Source: Methanomassiliicoccaceae archaeon (lineage in GTDB: Archaea; Thermoplasmatota; Thermoplasmata; Methanomassiliicoccales; Methanomassiliicoccaceae). Taken from it: a DNA stretch of 64,000 nt. Under the pieces are notes generated by a model that saw nothing but the letters and a program-made list of their open reading frames with translations, was not told the DNA's origin and searched no databases. Of the stretch, positions 1,504 through 60,594 are shown piece by piece. Both the position numbers and the translations under genes were made by a program. The stretch's first letter is position 1. The number at the start of each line of letters is the position of its first letter. The stretch covers positions 32,001-96,000 of the forward strand of contig CAVSJV010000003.1 in assembly GCA_963728405.1 (NCBI GenBank), given 5' to 3'.

Positions 1504-2706
1504 ATGGCGTTCAATCTCTTCGACCATATGGAACCGGAGGTGGTGGTCATCGGCGGCGGCCCGGTCGGCAGCACATTCGCGGCCCAGACCGCATCCTGCT
1601 CCACCATCGTGATCGAGGAGCATGAGGAGATCGGCTCCCCAGTGCAATGCACTGGTCTCGTCCATCCACGGGTCGTGGAGATGGCCCGGGCCGAGGGCAC
1701 CGTCCTCAACACCATCACCGGGTTCCGACTTGTTCTCCCGGGTGGGCGGAACCTGGAGGTCCGTTCTGGCGAGACCAAGGCGGTGGTCATCGACCGTGTG
1801 AAGTTCGACCGCATCTGTAGCTCGAGGGCCGAGGAAGAGGGCGCGGACATACTCACCGGCCTTGAGTTCAAGGGGTTCCAGCGCGATGGGCGTCGGTTGC
1901 GGATCAAACTGAAAGGCCCGAACGGCCCAGAGGAGCTGAGCACCGACCTGCTGGTCGGCGCGGACGGCTACAAGTCCCGGGTGGGGAAAGAGGCCGGGAT
2001 CGGTCCCCCTCGCGAGGTGGTGCGGGGAATCCAGGTCGACCTGGACGTTCGGATGGACGAACAGTCGCTGGTCGAAGTGCTCATCGGGCAGAAGGTGGCT
2101 CCGGGCTTCTTCGCCTGGGTCCTGCCCTGCGGCGACTTCACCCGGGTCGGGCTGGGCGTGGCGAACGCCAATGGGGCTCCGAGCAAGTACCTGAGCGCGC
2201 TTATAAAGCAGAAGGGGCTGGAGGGCGCCGAGAGGCTGAGGATCATCTCCGGAGCGATCCCCATCGGCCCGCCCAAGAGGACCTACGCGGACAATATCCT
2301 CATCGTTGGGGACGCCGCTGCTCAGACCAAACCGCTATCCGGCGGAGGGCTGTATACGGGCATGAGGGCGGCGCGGTGGGCGGCGATGACCGCGGTGGAG
2401 GCGATCAAGGAGAAGGACCTGAGCGCCAAGCGGCTGTCCGAATATGAGGCCCGCTGGAGGGCGGACCTCGGGAAGGAGCTGGACCGGGGCCTGCTCATCC
2501 GCCGGGCCTTCGTCAAGATGACCGACAAGAAGCTCGATGAGGTCGGCCGCTTGCTGGACCGCAACGATGCCAAGGTGGTGCTGGCCACCGGGGACATCGA
2601 TTACCCGTCCAAGATCGCTTCTCCGCTCCTGAGGGCGGTGCCGTCGATCATCAAGTTCTCGCCCCATCTGATCGGTTCGCTCATCAGGGGAGCAAACGGT
2701 AAATAG
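1504..2706 (+). CDS. Geranylgeranyl reductase family FAD-dependent oxidoreductase
   Basis: VVIGGGPVG dinucleotide motif, PVQC, FFAWVLP, GDAAAQTKPLSGGG. Confidence 0.9.
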   Translation: MAFNLFDHMEPEVVVIGGGPVGSTFAAQTASCSTIVIEEHEEIGSPVQCTGLVHPRVVEMARAEGTVLNTITGFRLVLPGGRNLEVRSGETKAVVIDRVKFDRICSSRAEEEGADILTGLEFKGFQRDGRRLRIKLKGPNGPEELSTDLLVGADGYKSRVGKEAGIGPPREVVRGIQVDLDVRMDEQSLVEVLIGQKVAPGFFAWVLPCGDFTRVGLGVANANGAPSKYLSALIKQKGLEGAERLRIISGAIPIGPPKRTYADNILIVGDAAAQTKPLSGGGLYTGMRAARWAAMTAVEAIKEKDLSAKRLSEYEARWRADLGKELDRGLLIRRAFVKMTDKKLDEVGRLLDRNDAKVVLATGDIDYPSKIASPLLRAVPSIIKFSPHLIGSLIRGANGK

Positions 2707-2727
2707 CCCGGTCCTTTTTTCTCGGGC

Positions 2728-3750
2728 ATGCTCCTCGCCAAGGTTCCCCGCTCCCAGGCCGAACAGGTCCGGAAGGTGCTCTTCCGCAAGCGCCTGGGCT
2801 GCAAGGACCGTCGCATCCGGACCGACGGGGACCACATGCTCATCCCGCTCAAGGCCGAACCGCCCCCCGAACTGATCGCGGAGCTGGGCCTCGTGCTGAT
2901 GGACGGAGATGTAAGGGGCAAGACCTGCTACCGGCCGCCCTACGACCTGGTGGTGGAATCGGCTCAGGTCCCCCCGGAGCTGAAGGGGCACTTCCCCCGC
3001 CACTGGGAGATGCTGGGCGATGTTCTCGTCCTCCGTCTGCCGGATGAGCTTGTTCCCCATCAGAGGGCGGTGGCCGAAGCGTATGCCGGGGTCCTGAACG
3101 CCCGCACCGTGCTGAAGGACCGGGTCCGCATCGACGGGGTCTTCCGCACCCCCGACATGGAGGTGCTGTGGGGCCACGGGACCGAGACGGTCCACTACGA
3201 GAACGGCCTCTTCTACAAGCTGGACGCGGGCCGCATCATGTTCTCTTCCGGTAACATCGACGAGAAGCTTCGCATGGCCTCACTGGATTGCCGCGGCGAG
3301 ACGGTGGTGGACATGTTCGCTGGGATAGGTTACTTCACTCTTCCCCTGGCGGTGCATGCGCACGCATCTACGATCATTGCCTGCGAGATCAATCCGCTGG
3401 CCTTCCACTACCTTGAGGAGAACATCAGACTGAACAGGGTCGGGTCGATAGTACGGCCAGTGTTGGGAGATAATAGGGAGCTTCCGGGCCAAGGGATCGC
3501 CGACCGGGTCATCATGGGCTACGTCCGGACGACCGCGCAGCACCTGGAGAAGGCGTTCGCGCTGGTGCGGAAGAACGGCATCATCCACTACCAGGACACA
3601 TTCCCGCTGGAAGTGTTCCCCCAGATGGCCATCGACAATGTCACTGAAGCGGCCAAGGGAAGGAAGTTCAGGATCGAACTTGTTCGTGAGGTGAAGTCCT
3701 ACTCGCCGGGCGTCTCCCACATGGTCCTGGACATCCGGGCCTTAGACTAA
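2728..3750 (+). CDS. Trm5/Taw2 (Met-10+) family SAM-dependent tRNA modification enzyme
   Basis: MFSSGNIDEKLRM, VVDMFAGIGYFTLP, EINP, VKSYSPG motifs. Confidence 0.85.
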   Translation: MLLAKVPRSQAEQVRKVLFRKRLGCKDRRIRTDGDHMLIPLKAEPPPELIAELGLVLMDGDVRGKTCYRPPYDLVVESAQVPPELKGHFPRHWEMLGDVLVLRLPDELVPHQRAVAEAYAGVLNARTVLKDRVRIDGVFRTPDMEVLWGHGTETVHYENGLFYKLDAGRIMFSSGNIDEKLRMASLDCRGETVVDMFAGIGYFTLPLAVHAHASTIIACEINPLAFHYLEENIRLNRVGSIVRPVLGDNRELPGQGIADRVIMGYVRTTAQHLEKAFALVRKNGIIHYQDTFPLEVFPQMAIDNVTEAAKGRKFRIELVREVKSYSPGVSHMVLDIRALD

Positions 3751-12608: not shown

Positions 12609-14175
12609 ATGCAGCTCAAAGCGAAATACATCGACATGGAATCGGCCGAGTACACCTCGGTCCTTCATCGCGAGGACGCCATGGAGATTGGCGTCAGAGA
12701 ACAGGACCGGGTGCGCATCAAGCATGAGCGCAATTCCACCGTGACCCTCGTACAGACGACTGACACCGTGGTCAAGAGGGGCGAGGTCGGCATTCTGGGG
12801 CAGGCGTACAAGGACCTTGGTCCGGAACCCGACGAACTCATCGAAGTGGTGGCGACCTCCAAGCCCGAGTCCATCGATTACATCAAGAAGAAGATGGACG
12901 GGAAGGAGCTGACCACGGCAGAGATCCGCGCCCTGATAAACGACATCGCCAGCCGGAGCCTGAGCAACATCGAGCTCACTGCCTACGTGACCTCGCTGCA
13001 CATCAACGGGATGAACATCCGGGAGACCGCTGACCTGACCCAGGCGATGGTGGAAACGGGGGAAACGATCAAGTTCGACCGGTCACCGGTCTTTGACTTC
13101 CACTCCATCGGCGGCTGCCCGGGGAACAAGATCACCCTGATCGTCGTCCCCATCGTCGCAGCGGCGGGGCTGCTAATTCCAAAGACCTCCTCCCGGGCGA
13201 TCAGCTCGGCGGCAGGGACCTCGGACATCGTGGAGGTGTTCGCCAACATCGATTTCAACGCCAACAAGCTGCGAAGCATCGCCGAAAGCACCGGCGGGGC
13301 GCTGGCCTGGGGGGGTTCGGTGAACCTCGCCCCCGCCGACGACCTGATCATCCGGGTGGAGTACCCCCTGGGCATCGATCCCCACGCCCAACTGCTCGCT
13401 TCGGTCATGAGCAAGAAGAAGGCGGTGGGAGCGGAGTTCCTGGTCATCGACATCCCGGTCGGGGCGGGGACCAAGGTACCCACGATGGATAAGGCCCAGG
13501 CCTACGCCAAGGACTTCGTGGAGCTTGGAGAAAGACTGGGCATGCACGTGGAGTGTGCCATAACCTACGGAGAACAGCCGGTCGGGAGGGCCATCGGCCC
13601 GGCGCTTGAAGCGCGGGAAGCGATCGCCATCCTGGAAGGCAGCCTGCATCCTAGCAGCGTCATCGAGAAATCGTGCGGCATGGCCGGCATGCTCCTGGAC
13701 ATGGGAGGCATCAAGCGGGGCGAAGCGAGGGCCAGAGAGATCCTGATGTCGGGCAAGGCCCTTGACAAGTTCCGGGAGATCGTGGCCGCCCAGGGCGGCA
13801 ACGCCGATATCAAGTCCGAGCGACATCCAGATCGGGAAATACACCTACGATATCACCTCGAAGATGTGCGGCTACGTCAACGGCATCAAGAACAAGGAAC
13901 TGGTGCAACTGGCACGGGCCGCCGGGGCGCCGAAGGACAAAGGAGCGGGGGTGCTGCTCCATAAGAAGCGCGGCAACCGCGTCGACGATGGGGAGCCGGT
14001 GCTCACCATCTACGCCGACAACAAGGCCAAGCTGGAGCAATCGATCGAGCTTTCCCGCAAGTTCAACCCGGTGACCGTGGAGGGCATGATCCTGGCCAAG
14101 CTGCCCTATGTCAGCAGCACCACGATCATCGAACGGACTTTCTGTCCTGGACCATCAACGCCTCAGGGAGAGTAA
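12609..14175 (+). CDS. AMP phosphorylase (frameshift near 13820)
   Basis: HSIGGCPGNK, PKTSSRAISSAAGT, SVMSKK; the C-terminus ARAAGAPKDKGAG continues in ORF 13762-14175. Confidence 0.92.
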
Positions 14176-30294: not shown

Positions 30295-30576
30295 GTCCTC
30301 GTCTCCGAACCCGTACTATATCTTGGTGAGAGGGAGGACGGGGGATAAAGTTTGCTAACCATTCCTGACCGAAAACGCTAGAGGCCCTCGAATCTAACAT
30401 GATCAGTATGGCGCTCCGTTCCCTCCCAGTCCAGGGGATGGCTGGCCTTCCCGCGGGAAGGCCTGTCCGGTGATGAGAGGGGCGGCCCAGGCGATTACTC
30501 GAACCACACATGCCGAGCACAGGAGCAAATGGCATCCTGAACTAAGATAGTGATAGAATAAAGGGAAAATAGAGAG

Positions 30577-30651
30577 CGGGCCAGGTGCGATTTGAACGCA
30601 CGACAGACGGATTAAGAGTCCGGTCCCTTAACCTGGCTAGAGTACTGGCCC
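30577..30651 (-). tRNA. tRNA-Lys (anticodon CTT)
   Basis: Cloverleaf GGGCCAG TA CTCT AGCCAGGTTA AGGG A CCGGA CTCTTAA TCCGT CTGTC GTGCG TTCAAAT CGCAC CTGGCCC G; T-rich tract downstream. Confidence 0.93.
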
Positions 30652-30930
30652 CTGTGTAGGCCGTGAAATATAGTCATCGTACATAAGCCTTTCTAAGCCT
30701 AAGGCCCGAATATTTTACAATTCGGAGCAAGAAGGCCCATGATCGAGATCATGGGATGAATTGCGATAGATCCTTTGAATACGCTCATTTCGGTGCTCTC
30801 CAGGTCATTGTACTGATGCACTTCAATGTGCATGCAGCTCTGACACCTAATGCCTGGTTCGCTCCTTCGGGACGACCAGGTAGTTGACCGCATCGGCCAG
30901 GAGCATCGTTCGCTCTCGTTCTTGGCCACT

Positions 30931-31056
30931 AGATGTTGGTCGATTGCACCAAGGTAGAGATTGGTGCAAGGGCCGCATTGATACGCCCCGGGAGGCTCCG
31001 TCATGAACGTACCGACCTCGGGATCCCACGAATTGATTCATGGGAGTGTCAAAGGC
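30931..31056 (-). ncRNA. Putative structured ncRNA, copy 1 of a duplicated motif
   Basis: About 87% identical by eye to 60289-60415. Hairpins cccatgaa/ttcgtggg and ttgcaccaa/ttggtgcaa; TATATA upstream near 31087-31092. Strand inferred from the TATA position. Confidence 0.6.
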
Positions 31057-38740: not shown

Positions 38741-39556
38741 ATGGTCGCGGACAAGAAGAATGAGAGGACCGACCCGTGCATCGAGTGCATCTCCAAGGAA
38801 AGGGGATCCCACGGAGATGCCTGGAGAAATGTTCACGGCTCATATTTCTCTGACCACGACATCGCCGCGCCGTTCCTGGACGATATCGTGGCCGCGCTCA
38901 ACACCGTCCGGCCGGACGTTATTGCCGACATCGGGGGAGGGACCGGATTCATCCTCCGCGAGCTATCGAACAGGGAAGGTGTTCGAGGGACCAGACTGCT
39001 CAATGTCGATGCGTCCCAGGAACAGCTGGAAGTATGCAGGGGGAGTGGGCTGGAACGCCGGTGCAGTTCGGTCATGGAGATCGAGCGGGGGGACCTGGCG
39101 AGCGAGAATGAATCGTTGACCATCATCAGCCGGTCGGTGCTGCACTATTTCGGACGGGAGGGGCAGCCCTCCTTCCTTCAGAAGTTGCGCTCCCTCCTCC
39201 TGCCGGGAGAGATGTTCATCCATCAGCCCGCCTGCTTTGCCACCCCTGAACTGCGGTCCTGTATGAACGAACTCTATCCGCTCATGGGGGTGGACAAATA
39301 CTATTCTACCCCCCAGGACCTGGAAGAGATGCACCATCGGGCCGGTTTCGATGTACTTCGCTCCCTGCCCGGCCCACCGCTGGACCTGAGATCGGAGGAC
39401 CTGGCCGTTCGCTACGGGCTCGATTCGGAGAGAGTGGAGGAGCTGGTCGATGTCATCCGGCGGTATGGTCTGGACCGGGACGGCGTTTTCGATGTCAGGC
39501 CCGGCGGGTTCCGGACCGAGTTCACCTACCGCATCCTGACGCTGAGGGCGGTTTGA
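38741..39556 (+). CDS. Class I SAM-dependent methyltransferase
   Basis: IADIGGGTG, NVDAS, SRSVLHY, L.PG motifs. Confidence 0.85.
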   Translation: MVADKKNERTDPCIECISKERGSHGDAWRNVHGSYFSDHDIAAPFLDDIVAALNTVRPDVIADIGGGTGFILRELSNREGVRGTRLLNVDASQEQLEVCRGSGLERRCSSVMEIERGDLASENESLTIISRSVLHYFGREGQPSFLQKLRSLLLPGEMFIHQPACFATPELRSCMNELYPLMGVDKYYSTPQDLEEMHHRAGFDVLRSLPGPPLDLRSEDLAVRYGLDSERVEELVDVIRRYGLDRDGVFDVRPGGFRTEFTYRILTLRAV

Positions 39557-39686
39557 AGAGGCCTTCATTTTGCTTCGCGTTTTCATCAACGTCAACTATA
39601 AATCTCCCGCTACGGGTCTTGCTGTCATCCATTCGTGCGTGGGGAAAATTCCTCTCACCAGGGAGGGAGGAAGCAGCGCCCTTTAT

Positions 39687-40931
39687 GATAAGTGTAAAGG
39701 CAATGGTAATATTACCTGACGGAGATACAACAGCGATGCAACGCACCATGCGCCTCTGGCTTGAGACAAGGCACGAAGATGCTTTAGCCCTGCTCAGAAC
39801 CATGGAGGAGTACACACAGGCGTTCGACATCGTGGCCGAGTGGGGATACCGGAATCACTCGAACAATAAGATAGACGCCCACAAGAATACCTATCGGACG
39901 GTCAGGCAACAGATTCCTAACCTCCCCTCATCCCTGGTCCAATGCGCAAGGGATTGCGCCTGCGAGGCGCTGAGAGGAATGAAAATGAATGGCTCTGCGT
40001 ACCAGCCTAGGCGGAATCCCCATGCTGCTCTAAGATACAACAAGTGCGTTGCATCTGTCTATTTGGAGTCAGGATATGTTACTCTTGCCACAGTATCAGG
40101 TCGTGTCAAAGTCACCTTCATTATCCCGGATTACTTTCATAAGTATGATGGCTGGAAAGTAAGATCCTCTAACTTGATCTACGACCGAAGCTCCAAGACC
40201 TTCTACCTCTGCATAAATCTTGAGACTGATAAAATACCCGATACGACAGTAGAGAAAGGCGTTCTTGGTATCGACCGGGGCATCAAAAACGTCGCCGTTA
40301 CCTCGGATAATCGATTCTTCAACTCCAAGGCGATCAACAACGTGCGCGGCAGGTACGCATACTTGCGCGGGCAGCTTCAGTCAAAAGGCACTCCCTCCGC
40401 AAAACGAAAATTAATGAGATTGAGCGGGCGAGAGAGACGGTTCAAGGCTGACGTGAACCACAGGATCGCTAAGGATATTGTTAACACCCCTTACGGGGTG
40501 TTCGTCCTGGAGGACCTGGCCCACATCGTGGAGAATAGGTTATATAGGAATAAAGGAAGCATAACTCGACATAGGAAGAACCAGAAATTAAGTAATTGGT
40601 CTTTCTACCAGTTCGAGGAGTATCTCCATTATAAGGCAGAGGAAAGAGGCAAGACTGTCATCTTGGTGGACCCGTCCTACACCTCGCAAACGTGTCCGAG
40701 GTGCGGCTGCGTTCATCGGGAGAACCGCCACGGCTCTTCCTTCGAGTGCATCGAATGCGGCTACCAGCTGCACTCGGATCTCGTTGCCTCCAGGAACATC
40801 GCTCAGCTTGGTATATCTGAACTGAGCAGGCTTCTTGTCAACAAGCCAATCGTAGCGTGCCATGACATCAAGGTTGGTTACCTTGGGAGAGGACAGTTAC
40901 AAGCCCTATCGCCGGAGGTGGGGTAGTTGAC
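39687..40931 (+). mobile_element. IS200/IS605-family tnpB-only element (IS1341-like)
   Basis: tnpB gene, lower GC than the flanks, right end agttacaagccc...ggggtagttgac. Left junction inferred after TTTAT (39682-39686). Confidence 0.75.
39736..40926 (+). CDS. tnpB: RNA-guided endonuclease TnpB
   Basis: RuvC I GIDRG, RuvC II VLEDL, zinc finger TSQTCPRCG..CIECG, RuvC III HSDLVASRNI. Confidence 0.95.
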   Translation: MQRTMRLWLETRHEDALALLRTMEEYTQAFDIVAEWGYRNHSNNKIDAHKNTYRTVRQQIPNLPSSLVQCARDCACEALRGMKMNGSAYQPRRNPHAALRYNKCVASVYLESGYVTLATVSGRVKVTFIIPDYFHKYDGWKVRSSNLIYDRSSKTFYLCINLETDKIPDTTVEKGVLGIDRGIKNVAVTSDNRFFNSKAINNVRGRYAYLRGQLQSKGTPSAKRKLMRLSGRERRFKADVNHRIAKDIVNTPYGVFVLEDLAHIVENRLYRNKGSITRHRKNQKLSNWSFYQFEEYLHYKAEERGKTVILVDPSYTSQTCPRCGCVHRENRHGSSFECIECGYQLHSDLVASRNIAQLGISELSRLLVNKPIVACHDIKVGYLGRGQLQALSPEVG

Positions 40932-53237: not shown

Positions 53238-55573
53238 GGGATGTCATGCCTGGAAAGGAATTGACCAGGAAGAGGCCGGTGCCCTTCCCCCTGTTCGAGA
53301 TCGACATATTCTCCGCCACGCCCGAGGATCTCAAAGAGCTGTCCAAGACCATGGGCCTGAACCTTAGCCCTGAGGAAATGGATATGGTGAAGGCGTACTT
53401 CAAGAAGGGCAAGCGCCTCCCCACCGACGTCGAGCTGCAGTCGATCGCCCAGGCCTGGAGCGAGCACTGCTGCTACAAGTCTTCCAAGTGCTTCCTGCGG
53501 GAACATATCTTCACCATCAAGCACCCCGACGTCCTATCCAAAGGGGACGCCGGGGTCATGGCGTTCGATGACGAGCACGCCTATGCCCTCCGGATCGAGA
53601 GCCACAACCACCCATCGGCGATCGAGCCGTACGGTGGGGCGGCCACCGGCATCGGCGGCATCGTCAGGGACGTCCTGGCCATGGGCGCCCAGCCCATCGC
53701 CCTGGTCGACCCGCTGTTCTTCGGACCGCTGGAGCTCAGGGAGGTCCCGGCCGGCGTCAAGCTGCCCAAGTACCTGACCGGCGGGGTCGTGGCCGGCATT
53801 CGCGATTACGGTAACAGGATAGGTATCCCCACCATCGCTGGCGGGGTGTTCTTCGATCCCGCGTACACCGGTAATTGCCTTGTGAACGTTGGCTGCATCG
53901 GCTTCCTCAGGAAGGACAAGCTGCTGAACAATGCCGTACAGGGGACCGGGGATGTACTGATCCTGGTAGGCGGCCGCACTGGACGGGATGGCATCCATGG
54001 CGTCACCTTCGCCTCGGCCGAGCTGAGCGCCAGGTCCGAGGATGAGTCCCGCGGAGCGGTCCAGCTGGGCGACCCCATCATGAAGGAACCGACCATCCAC
54101 GCCTGCCTGGAAGTTAACGAGCAGGGGCTGGTCAGCGGCATCAAGGACCTGGGAGGCGGCGGGCTGTCCTGCGTCATCGGCGAGATTGCCCTGGCCGGCG
54201 GTTGTGGGGCGGTAGTTCAACTTGACAAGGTGCCCCTCAAGGAAGAGGGCCTAGCGCCCTGGGAGATCTGGGTATCGGAGTCGCAGGAGCGCATGATGCT
54301 CGCTGCCCCGGAGAAGAACGTCGAGCGGATCCTGGAGATCTTCGGCCTGTGGGACATGCCCGCCACCGTCGTCGCCAAGGTGGTCAAAGAACAACGGGTC
54401 AAACTCATCTACGAGGGCGTGGAGGTCTTCGACCTCGACCTCGAGTTCCTGACCAAGGGGCCGGAATACTGCCGGCCGACGGCGACCTCGAACGGCTTAG
54501 GGAACATCCCCTACAAGGCACCCCAGCTTCCTGACGGCCTGAACTCTGTGGTGCTGTCGACGCTGGCCGATCCCAACATCGCTTCCAAGGAATGGATGAT
54601 CACCCAGTACGACCATGAGGTCCGGGCGTCCACGGTCATCAAGCCCATGCAGGGGAAACCGGGGCTGCGCGGCCCCGCCGACGCCACCGTGCTCAAGCCG
54701 CTCGTGGACTCGTACCGCGGACTGGCCGTCGCCATCGGGGTAAATCCCTGGTTCACCGCTCAAGACCCATACAATGGCGGACGGAGCTCGGTCGACGAGG
54801 CGTGCCGTAACATCGTCGCCGTAGGCGGACGGCCCCATGCCCTGACCGATTGCCTTAACTTCGGCAATCCTGAGAAGCCAGAGCGACTGTTCGAGTTCAA
54901 GGAAGCGGTCCGCGGCATAGGCGAGATGGCCAGGGACCTGAACCTCGCCGTGCCGTCCGGGAACGTGTCGTTCTACAACGAGACGGCCCACGGCGCCGCG
55001 TTGCCGACCCCTACCGTGCTGGGGGTGGGCATCGTTGAGGATATTCGCAAATGCGTCACCACCGATTTCAAGAACGAGGGCAACCCCGTCTACTTGGTCG
55101 GGGAGACCCTGGACGAGATGGGTGCCTCGGCCCTCTTCCGTCGTTATGGCGGGAGCGGAGGGAATGTTCCCGCGGTCGACAGCACCGCACTAGCCTCTCG
55201 GACGGACCTGATCCTGGCCGCCATGTCCAAGGGGCTGGTCAGGAGCTGCCATGACTGCTCCGACGGCGGGCTGGCGATCACCTTGGCGGAGATGTGCCTG
55301 GGCGGAGACCTAGGTTTCTTCGGGGACCTTTCCCCGCTGGGCGACCTGCCCTTCGAGGTTAAGCTGTTCTCCGAGTCCAACTCCCGTTTCGTGGTCGAGG
55401 TCGAGCCATCCAAGGCCGCCGAGTTCGAATCGCTTGCAAAGAAGCAAGCATATCGCATCGGCGAGGTCGGACGCGGCAAGATGGCCATCCGGGACGGCAG
55501 GGCCGGAGTGGACCTCAAGGTCCCGGCCATGAGAAAGGCGTGGTCAGAACCTCTGTGGAGGCTGTTGGGGTGA
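53234..55573 (+). CDS. purL: FGAM synthase subunit PurL
   Basis: WSEHCCYKSS, ESHNHPS, DCLNFGNP, SGNVSFYN. Confidence 0.97.
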   Translation: MRDVMPGKELTRKRPVPFPLFEIDIFSATPEDLKELSKTMGLNLSPEEMDMVKAYFKKGKRLPTDVELQSIAQAWSEHCCYKSSKCFLREHIFTIKHPDVLSKGDAGVMAFDDEHAYALRIESHNHPSAIEPYGGAATGIGGIVRDVLAMGAQPIALVDPLFFGPLELREVPAGVKLPKYLTGGVVAGIRDYGNRIGIPTIAGGVFFDPAYTGNCLVNVGCIGFLRKDKLLNNAVQGTGDVLILVGGRTGRDGIHGVTFASAELSARSEDESRGAVQLGDPIMKEPTIHACLEVNEQGLVSGIKDLGGGGLSCVIGEIALAGGCGAVVQLDKVPLKEEGLAPWEIWVSESQERMMLAAPEKNVERILEIFGLWDMPATVVAKVVKEQRVKLIYEGVEVFDLDLEFLTKGPEYCRPTATSNGLGNIPYKAPQLPDGLNSVVLSTLADPNIASKEWMITQYDHEVRASTVIKPMQGKPGLRGPADATVLKPLVDSYRGLAVAIGVNPWFTAQDPYNGGRSSVDEACRNIVAVGGRPHALTDCLNFGNPEKPERLFEFKEAVRGIGEMARDLNLAVPSGNVSFYNETAHGAALPTPTVLGVGIVEDIRKCVTTDFKNEGNPVYLVGETLDEMGASALFRRYGGSGGNVPAVDSTALASRTDLILAAMSKGLVRSCHDCSDGGLAITLAEMCLGGDLGFFGDLSPLGDLPFEVKLFSESNSRFVVEVEPSKAAEFESLAKKQAYRIGEVGRGKMAIRDGRAGVDLKVPAMRKAWSEPLWRLLG

Positions 55574-60005: not shown

Positions 60006-60288
60006 CTAAACACCTTTTTTAGGTAATCGCCTTAATGTAGCTTAGAATAAATAACTATTGCTTGCCGAGAGGGGTTCCTGAATACGTTTTTCTTTCTTCA
60101 AATGAGGGCATCCAGGTAATGCCCGGCCTCCCCTCACGGGAGCTCAGATATCCTAGAACGGGATCGGGCGGTGCGAAGTTTGATCAAAATGATGACCTGA
60201 TCCAAACCCCATAGGACCTGGGCCCTCGATGCCTACGTTTAAACCGCGTCAGGAACATGCAGTTTCGAAACGAGGACAGAGCATGGTT

Positions 60289-60415
60289 GGCTTTGACACC
60301 CCCATGAAGTCATTCGTGGGATTCTGAGGTCGGCATCGTTCATGCCGGAGCCTCCTGGGGCGTATCAATGCGGCCCTTGCACCAATCCCTGTCTTGGTGC
60401 AATCGACCAGCGTCT
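60289..60415 (+). ncRNA. Putative structured ncRNA, copy 2 of a duplicated motif
   Basis: About 87% identical by eye to the reverse complement of 30931-31056; TTTAAA at 60238-60243 upstream. Confidence 0.6.
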
Positions 60416-60465
60416 TCTTCTAACGAGGGGCGCAACGCGATGTTGAACGACGCGTAGGCGTCGGC

Positions 60466-60594
60466 GTGGTCAGCATCGAGCTCAAAGTGGTCAAAAAATG
60501 CAAGGAGTGCGGGACCTCATCTTCCTCCTGCGGCTGTGAGGAAGAGGCCTGCTCTTTCGAATGCTGTGGAGAACCGATGAAACCGAAAGGATGA
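60466..60594 (+). CDS. 42-aa Cys-rich desulforedoxin/metallothionein-like micro-protein
   Basis: MVSIELKVVKKCKECGTSSSSCGCEEEACSFECCGEPMKPKG (GTG start); CxxCG...CCGEPM pattern; T-rich tract at about 60614-60630. Confidence 0.65.
   Translation: MVSIELKVVKKCKECGTSSSSCGCEEEACSFECCGEPMKPKG

Follow-up and report, generated by a model that had tools for sequence, protein, structure and literature searches.

A structured repeat of a Methanomassiliicoccaceae archaeon as the probable right end of an IS608-type tnpB insertion sequence

What is the structured motif that occurs twice in a 64,000-nucleotide (nt) stretch of DNA, here called the window, from a Methanomassiliicoccaceae archaeon? An earlier note, made from the sequence alone, had described two similar stretches, each containing two hairpins whose loops differ and an identical core, and had proposed that they represent either a new archaeal non-coding RNA (ncRNA) family or a non-autonomous mobile element. 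The resemblance is as described: the two copies, which we term A and B, are 88% identical over ~124 nt (E = 8e-39) in a near-gapless block from TTGACAC onward, and the hairpins and the core are present in both. We now read the motif, with high confidence, as the right end (RE) of an insertion sequence of the IS200/IS605 family and the IS608 type, that is, a tnpB element accompanied by tnpA in some of its relatives. An IS200/IS605-type end is the kind of match that the earlier note had itself set against its ncRNA proposal. The element is an uncurated IS608-like tnpB element with an omega-RNA scaffold, which is an already known kind and not a new RNA class, and the family may already figure in published covariance models or omega-RNA lists.

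Copies, boundaries and insertion sites

The 2.73-Mb, 18-contig assembly contains six copies of the repeat at E <= 4e-30, named A to F, and an internally deleted seventh, G. Six clear genomic copies and recurrence across the order place the repeat beyond chance. The extents first given for the two window copies are corrected: copy A occupies 60293-60472, and the RE portion that copy B has in common with the other copies (~30931-31052) lies within a longer element at 30719-31052. The copies are as follows, those outside the window being given by contig and position.

60293..60472, minus strand: copy A, a 180-nt RE stump with a tnpB 3' remnant, the omega-RNA scaffold region and the RE terminus ...GTGTCAA
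30719..31052, plus strand: copy B, a complete 334-nt tnpB-less mini-element with a left end (LE), a tnpB 3' remnant, the omega scaffold and the RE
C3:~307805-307985: copy C, which carries a frameshifted tnpB
C5:~236792-236972: copy D, tnpB-less and with a copy B-like architecture
C7:~328997-329138: copy E, decayed
C4:~129405-129526: copy F, which lacks the terminal ~46 nt of the RE
C3:~209858-210181: copy G, internally deleted

The last element base of copy A is 60293, and its similarity to copies C and D spans 180-181 nt. A sharp edge (at the 5' end as the earlier note had read the motif) is shared by every copy but the truncated F, and it reads TTGACAC, or TAGACAC in copy E. On the opposite side the genome copies fade at differing points. 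An alignment of 28 copies was prepared in the tnpB sense from 27 locus hits, including A, C and D, together with copy B; genome copies E, F and G and matches without a locus were left out. In this alignment, ...GTGTCAA is followed by unrelated DNA in 25 of the 28 copies, GTATCAA takes its place in two, and the terminus of the remaining one is degenerate. The possibility that the repeat reflects mis-assembly was dropped because the copies differ by 9-16% and the repeat family recurs across genomes. In the sister assembly G069, contigs C67 and C29 (loci L008 and L035) begin 25 nt before the right-end repeat, which suggests that copies of the element break assemblies and that copy numbers in draft genomes are underestimates.

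A covariance model (R1) gives 221.7 bits for copy A and 141.9 bits for copy B, both of which are members by construction, and a scan of the window with this model found no copy beyond these two. A genome-wide scan for short motifs with 2 mismatches proved too permissive, and its usable output consists of exact core matches, of which there are five, and possible solo left ends. The scaffold core is identical in 5 of the 6 genome copies.

The insertion site of copy B is resolved by comparison with a sister genome. TTAC lies directly 5' of the element, and the locus reads ...GAATATTTTAC, then the element (30719-31052), then AGGCTTAG..., compared with ...GAATCTTGCAC joined directly to AGGTATGA... 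in G069:C43. The orthologous spacer of the sister genome, between the tRNA-Lys gene and a CBS-domain gene, is an empty site (...GCAC followed by AGG..., versus ...TTAC, 334 nt and AGG... here), and it rejoins the flanks without a target duplication.

30715..30718, plus strand: TTAC target of copy B
30576..30651, minus strand: tRNA-Lys(CTT), ~65 nt from the left end of copy B, the insertion lying in the spacer rather than within the tRNA gene
from 31053, plus strand: flank of copy B at the guide position, AGGCTTAGTAAACTCG

Copy A interrupts a small Cys-rich host gene that is uninterrupted (MVGCNDMKMGQVYVCGECGIELKV...) in contig C2 of the same sister genome. The host gene begins at 60284, runs for 9-10 nt up to the RE and continues at 60473, after a loss of 45 nt. 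Its remainder (60473-60594) takes in the listed 42-amino-acid (aa) open reading frame (ORF) at 60466-60594, which begins with GTG and is a remnant of the disrupted gene. On the tnpB-sense strand, G069:C2 reads TTAC followed by AGCCGACCAT, which is the flank of the copy A RE. The simplest history is therefore an insertion 3' of TTAC and then a deletion, which took away the left end together with most of tnpB and 45 nt of host-gene sequence. An intact Cys-rich gene occurs at locus L050 (G069:C2:~13257-13420) in the form MVGCNDMKMGQVYVCGECGIELKVIKECKECG...CGCEEEACSFECCGEPM..., and its CxxC...CC pattern has what we take to be a desulforedoxin-like look.

60284..60594, plus strand: small Cys-rich host gene disrupted by copy A, with its start ATGGTTGGC(T) at 60284-60292
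60273..60292, minus strand: RE flank of copy A at the omega-RNA guide position, AGCCAACCATGC..., corresponding to the start of that host gene in reverse

The proposal of a non-autonomous mobile element thus holds for copy B, which has both ends, lies 3' of TTAC and is absent from the sister site, and it nearly holds for copy A, a truncated right end that insertion and deletion left behind. The TATA-like boxes reported upstream of each copy do exist, but they lie in host flank DNA that is conserved in the sister genome, at the empty site for copy B and at the intact-gene site for copy A. For copy A they probably form the promoter of the interrupted gene, and for copy B that of the CBS-domain gene, which is read from the other strand. 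The six copies have unrelated neighbours, and the motif does not recur in front of any one set of genes with related functions. This variation in downstream genes argues against the riboswitch that had been suggested.

Both ends of the element carry subterminal hairpins, which resemble the left and right imperfect palindromes (IPL and IPR) of IS608.

60301..60320, minus strand: RE subterminal hairpin of copy A (IPR-like; helix 5 of the RNA structure below), with GAAT before it (60324-60321) and 8 nt after it, ending in TCAA (60296-60293)
31025..31052, plus strand: RE hairpin of copy B (31025-31044) and terminal ...GTGTCAA, with TCAA at 31049-31052
30736..30755, plus strand: LE subterminal hairpin of copy B (IPL-like), its foot 17 nt from TTAC, with AAGG before and GATGAATTGCGA after

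A left end is common to copies B, D, F and G and to three intact relatives, and consists of 6-12 variable nt, GAGCAAGAA(A/G)GCC, a hairpin of a form such as CCCAYGA...TCRTGGG, and GATGAATTGCGA. TTAC precedes it in 5 of these 7 copies, with TTAA and CTAA in the other two. The foot of the left hairpin lies 17-19 nt past TTAC, with AAAG, AAGG or a similar tetranucleotide before the hairpin. On the right, GAAT precedes the hairpin in most copies and (A/G)GTGTCAA follows it, so that TCAA ends 8 nt past the hairpin. The left and right ends are not inverted repeats. Two possible extra solo left ends, each a hairpin followed by a GATGAATYG-like core, came from the over-permissive scan (C5:~244450-244490, with the scan match at ~244477, and C4:~53330-53365, both on the plus strand).

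Excerpts of PMC3201880 and PMC5934647 describe the corresponding signals of IS608 from Helicobacter pylori. Its left cleavage and target site, TTAC (CL), lies 19 nt 5' of the left hairpin foot, its right cleavage site, TCAA (CR), lies 10 nt 3' of the right hairpin foot, and the guide tetranucleotides AAAG (GL) and GAAT (GR) stand just 5' of the hairpin feet. IS608 excises and inserts 'without DNA gain or loss', in the wording of these excerpts. The absence of terminal inverted repeats and of target duplications, which had been reported correctly for the window copies, is the behaviour expected of the IS200/IS605 family (excerpts of PMC3201880). The present element shares with IS608 the insertion 3' of TTAC, the terminal TCAA, the lack of inverted repeats and target duplications, and imperfect subterminal hairpins near its two ends, each preceded by a tetranucleotide that is AAAG-like on the left and GAAT on the right; one of its relatives also has the organisation of tnpA (Y1) plus tnpB. 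It differs from IS608 in its archaeal host, in a TnpB of only 337-340 aa, in that most copies are tnpB-only or tnpB-less, and in having 8 rather than 10 nt between the right hairpin foot and the cleavage site. It also has no detectable nucleotide similarity to a curated family, in a comparison that lay outside ISfinder. Judged from the sequences of tnpB (which encodes a zinc-ribbon, RuvC-like nuclease) and tnpA, of the target and of the hairpin ends, the element qualifies at the DNA level as an IS200/IS605 (IS608-like) member.

Copies B (334 nt), D, F and G resemble the non-autonomous derivatives of this family, or mini-elements, in keeping their ends without a transposase or nuclease gene, although F is without the RE terminus, and copy B also does so in being an insertion relative to the sister genome. 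Unlike such derivatives, B, D and F retain the omega scaffold region and a 3' fragment of tnpB. Mini-elements of this sort are described as PATE/MITE-like.

The tnpB gene that ends in the repeat

The gene associated with the repeat is best seen in copy C, where a tnpB on the strand opposite to the one first considered has its stop codon inside the repeat. The C-terminal half of its product, ...NHKISKEIVNIAAQQGCGIKMERL...CSRC...CVCGHVDHADANASFNIALRPSLEEGVCRLHQDRDWCKGRIDTPQEAPA and stop, matches Pfam PF07282 (Cas12f1-like TNB, 3.9e-22) and NCBIfam NF040570 (guided_TnpB, 129.8 bits against a cut-off of 100). Two frame changes, judged against intact relatives, are needed to read through this gene, and so copy C tnpB is a pseudogene unless the assembly is wrong. 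When the same C-terminal half was used as a tblastn query, TnpB C-terminal codons were found on the same relative strand in all of the other copies from A to F.

60343..60474, minus strand: TnpB remnant of copy A, 44 codons, 88.6% identity to copy C TnpB (E = 2.8e-20)
30935..31003, plus strand: TnpB tail remnant of copy B, 23 codons (VGRLHQGRDWCKGRIDTPREAPS), 82.6% identity (E = 6e-7)
copy D: TnpB remnant, 42 aa, 97.6% identity
copy E: TnpB remnant, 54 aa, 53.7% identity
copy F: TnpB remnant, 35 aa, 85.7% identity, with one stop

The copy A remnant includes the RuvC-III motif (...DHADA.ASFNIA...) and the tail ...GRIDTPQEAPA, and ends with a TGA stop at 60342-60340. Its region is covered by a listed minus-strand ORF (60340..60435), and a plus-strand ORF (30884..31006) is likewise listed over the tail remnant of copy B. 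These remnants account for two earlier observations. The weaker similarity noted ~30 nt beyond the repeat is present, and tblastn identifies it as tnpB RuvC-III codons on the opposite strand. Similarly, the argument that the motif is non-coding stands for the strand on which it was made, but the opposite strand encodes the TnpB tail, over 44 aa in copy A and 23 aa in copy B. By gene context, the sense strand of the motif is this opposite strand rather than the one proposed.

Intact forms of the gene were found in relatives. The 180-nt copy A was searched against 201 genomes of the order, this one included, and at most four candidates were scored per genome, so that copy numbers in relatives are lower bounds. 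Matches were obtained in 17 genomes, 14 of them long and the other three just 21-36 nt (E about 5e-4 to 8e-4); by family, 10 of 23, 4 of 47 and 2 of 114 genomes have a match. The right end is matched at E <= 1e-5 by 27 of the 30 related loci that were fetched. Nine related loci have start-to-stop ORFs of 320-487 aa that contain TnpB, and all nine stop 46-50 nt before the end of the RE. Four of these ORFs have a conserved MLLTF/MLKTF start and a length of 337-340 aa. In the longer ones the same TnpB is extended upstream, and the 320-aa ORF begins at a later codon, without that N-terminus.

The catalytic motifs GIDxN, GIK(M/L)E and HADxNAS can be recognised by eye in the TnpBs of the relatives. 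PF07282 is matched in all three intact relatives tested, and two intact proteins score 168-172 bits on guided_TnpB. A Y1 transposase domain (PF01797) lies upstream of TnpB in one of three relatives tested (L014, 6.7e-9). At this locus (G065:C1, locus coordinates 1553-3013, minus strand), a 487-codon stop-free frame holds a partial PF01797 (profile positions 11-60 of 121) and then TnpB, and may reflect an in-frame fusion of a tnpA remnant or a wrongly placed start.

By sequence, the nearest solved structures are Cas12f and TnpB chains (8hr5, 8j12, 7wju and 9nzp; E about 1e-20), and the TnpB of ISDra2 (8exa) is only distantly related (E = 1.4e-4). The present system thus departs from that of ISDra2 in having a TnpB nearer to Cas12f-like chains. 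The intact TnpBs of 337-340 aa, at loci L013, L026, L027 and L036, are shorter than the 408-aa ISDra2 TnpB chain.

Covarying structure and its strand

According to excerpts of PMC10705468, the scaffold of a TnpB omega-RNA, or right-end RNA (reRNA), spans the 3' end of tnpB and the RE, and the guide is the sequence beyond the RE. Archaeal ncRNAs at the 3' end of IS1341-type tnpB genes are also reported in an excerpt of PMC4615843. Read in the tnpB sense, the motif is laid out in a corresponding way, with the last ~45 codons of tnpB (RuvC-III and C-terminal tail), a stop in a hairpin loop, and ~48 nt of non-coding sequence that closes with the subterminal hairpin and ...GTGTCAA.

RNAalifold, applied to the raw alignment, returned only helices 1 and 2 and a weak stem in the coding region; the other helices were written by hand and then tested. 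Over the 28 copies, the five helices (31 pairs) have 91.1% paired cells, versus 34-44% with slid partners. Covariation, which had been proposed earlier as a check on the motif, is present: 14 of the 31 pairs have changes on both sides, amounting to 88 cells, versus 31.2 +/- 5.0 in shuffled alignments (none of 500 reached 88), and the covariation score is 0.324, versus 0.139 for shuffled alignments and 0.035-0.10 for slid partners. The conserved structure is genuine and is supported by this covariation. For helix 1 the figures are as follows.

60377..60402, minus strand: helix 1 of copy A, 9 bp inside the TnpB tail codons, with 6 of 9 pairs changed on both sides and 92.8% paired

The compensatory changes in helix 1 alter the TnpB tail (...HQDRDWC... 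versus ...KPDRDGL...), and RNA pairing therefore overrides protein sequence there. The stop codon of tnpB is located in the loop of helix 4. Helix 5, which is the RE hairpin, has 88.6% of its cells paired and 3 pairs changed on both sides. From the end of the element, the covarying helices reach ~130 nt inward, into the tnpB tail codons.

These data bear on whether the hairpins might serve solely as right-end DNA signals for recognition and cleavage by TnpA, with no functional RNA made. The terminal hairpin with its GAAT and TCAA and the similar left hairpin are classic IS608-type DNA signals, and the strand evidence for an RNA, described below, is weak. We nevertheless consider a purely DNA-level role very improbable. 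The helices extend well past the 45-56 nt of the RE substrates that gave robust TnpA complexes with IS608 (excerpts of PMC3201880), the protein tail gives way to the compensatory changes, the structure persists in relatives that have tnpB but no tnpA, and its position matches that of published omega-RNAs (excerpts of PMC10705468).

The covarying hairpins occupy the expected position of the TnpB omega/reRNA scaffold. It resembles omega-RNAs or reRNAs such as that of ISDra2, and the archaeal 'sotRNAs' of IS1341-type tnpB genes, in overlapping the 3' end of tnpB and ending at the RE, in its multi-helix structure, and in that the flank beyond the RE, at the guide position, is unrelated in all aligned copies. 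Unlike in known omega-RNAs, the sequence and helix layout are lineage-specific here.

Several observations weigh against our reading of the motif as a right end with an omega-RNA scaffold. A comparison of both window copies with Rfam 15, as had been suggested, gave no family match at the gathering score or at E <= 10 except for the unrelated mir-7940 downstream of copy A (E = 4.5), and so the RNA assignment rests on position and covariation rather than on a curated model. Covariation is blind to strand, and the count of G-U versus A-C cells over the five helices (52 versus 34) shows only a mild lean towards the tnpB sense. The two strands have similar z-scores of minimum free energy (-2.00 for the tnpB sense, -2.58 for the other). 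By eye, three helix 1 changes in copy E keep pairing only on the strand opposite to tnpB. In a candidate pseudoknot, which would join the helix 2 loop (UUGAUAC) to GUGUCAA at the terminus, 96.4% of the cells are paired, with 36 G-U versus 5 A-C cells in the tnpB sense; it is not claimed, because none of its pairs shows two-sided change and it fails to rise above shuffles. Since none of these measures settles the strand, its assignment is based mainly on the gene context and on precedents in the literature. A DNA-level TnpA signal, rather than an RNA, could also account for part of the conservation. Among public sequencing runs, none contains the stretch (best share 0.17), and three RNA runs and one DNA run gave contigs of relatives only. 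One contig from an RNA library, X17 (257 nt), covers 60319-60467 and continues into a different hairpin and flank and into tnpB codons, as in a related intact element; it shows neither transcription nor strand. Finally, no tnpA was found in a PF01797 profile search of this genome, whose assembly is 93.75% complete and hence leaves the absence of tnpA unproven, and the two frameshifts of copy C could in principle be assembly errors.

Some of these observations would suit a stand-alone structured ncRNA (a riboswitch, ribozyme or small RNA) with a TATA box of its own and transcribed opposite to tnpB. The structure is real and covaries without regard to strand, that strand folds slightly better, no Rfam family matches, and the host gene promoter at copy A would probably transcribe the motif in this orientation. 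However, tnpB codons lie on the other strand in every copy, intact tnpB genes end in the repeat in relatives, and the motif shows the boundary of a transposon, with TTAC as its target and an empty site in the sister genome. Moreover, downstream genes vary among the copies, the TATA-like boxes belong to host flanks and are present at empty sites too, and the G-U counts lean to the tnpB sense. A stand-alone ncRNA is thus hardly credible. The covarying structure on which a new archaeal ncRNA family had been proposed is instead that of the 3' end of tnpB and the transposon RE, which excerpts of PMC10705468 describe as the site of the omega/reRNA scaffold.

Probable roles, present state and meaning of the copies

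In intact elements, the right end would have two jobs. In single-stranded DNA, the terminal hairpin with GAAT before and TCAA after would serve as the right-end signal cut by the Y1 TnpA, and the left end would be marked by the similar hairpin 17-19 nt after the target TTAC. In a tnpB-sense RNA, ~150 nt with four or five covarying helices would form the omega/reRNA scaffold that TnpB presumably binds. The 3' continuation of this RNA into the flank would guide TnpB to cut the TTAC-flanked empty donor site, with TTAC as the putative transposon-associated motif (TAM), and the element would thereby be copied back.

Copies A and B themselves are probably defective remnants and now inactive relics, because no tnpA was found, the genome lacks an intact cognate tnpB (that of copy C, the sole one, being frameshifted), and the guide flanks have no second match. 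For the latter, the seven guide-position flanks were compared with the genome, and none has a second match with <2 mismatches or a weaker match directly after TTAC. Copy A is a 180-nt stump, most simply left by insertion into the Cys-rich gene and subsequent deletion. Copy B, a 334-nt mini-element that has kept both ends and the scaffold and lost tnpB, probably belongs to a family once mobilised in trans, because B, D and F share an architecture and related pieces occur in two sister genomes.

The tnpB-less copies could alternatively be retained or expressed as orphan omega-RNAs. These would either defend their insertion sites with a TnpB supplied in trans or have taken on a role as regulatory RNAs. 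In their one shared architecture, copies B, D and F have lost tnpB but kept the scaffold region (F without the terminal ~46 nt), mini-element relatives occur in two sister genomes, the scaffold core is nearly invariant among the genome copies, and the genome holds at least 10 other TnpB-like loci, one of them in the window. These loci are only 33-44% identical over the C-terminal half, and none adjoins any of the six right-end copies. Together with the frameshifted cognate tnpB and the unmatched guide flanks, they make retention as orphan omega-RNAs decidedly unlikely; in addition, copy A has no left end, F has no RE terminus and E is decayed, and the identity of the scaffold can reflect constraint in source elements before insertion. 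The TnpB-like gene in the window (39553-40926, plus strand) is apparently intact and of a different subfamily, with a 457-aa ORF that includes an upstream extension. Its C-terminal half is 36% identical to copy C TnpB, and it is without the right end studied here.

A related idea, still unlikely though a little less so, is that mini-elements B, D and F are 'guide-only' hitch-hikers, selected for retaining the two TnpA ends and a whole omega-RNA scaffold and thereby able to draw on TnpA and TnpB in trans for mobility and homing. Another version has the stumps expressed as orphan RNAs, either guide or antisense, of which copy A, which lies directly behind a host promoter in antisense orientation, would be an example.

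The identification mainly averts a false call of a new ribozyme or riboswitch, the motif being transposon debris of a well-understood kind. An IS608-like tnpB family of this archaeal order is now delimited by its boundaries, TTAC target, end signals and covarying scaffold, which should aid annotation where no Rfam model recognises the family. Where helix 1 overlaps TnpB tail codons, RNA structure has clearly dictated a change in protein sequence. The TnpBs of 337-340 aa are unusually small and closer in sequence to Cas12f-like proteins than to ISDra2 TnpB. Proteins like these are screened as compact genome editors, and the combination of a TTAC-type target motif with a small TnpB could be of interest in screens for compact nucleases.

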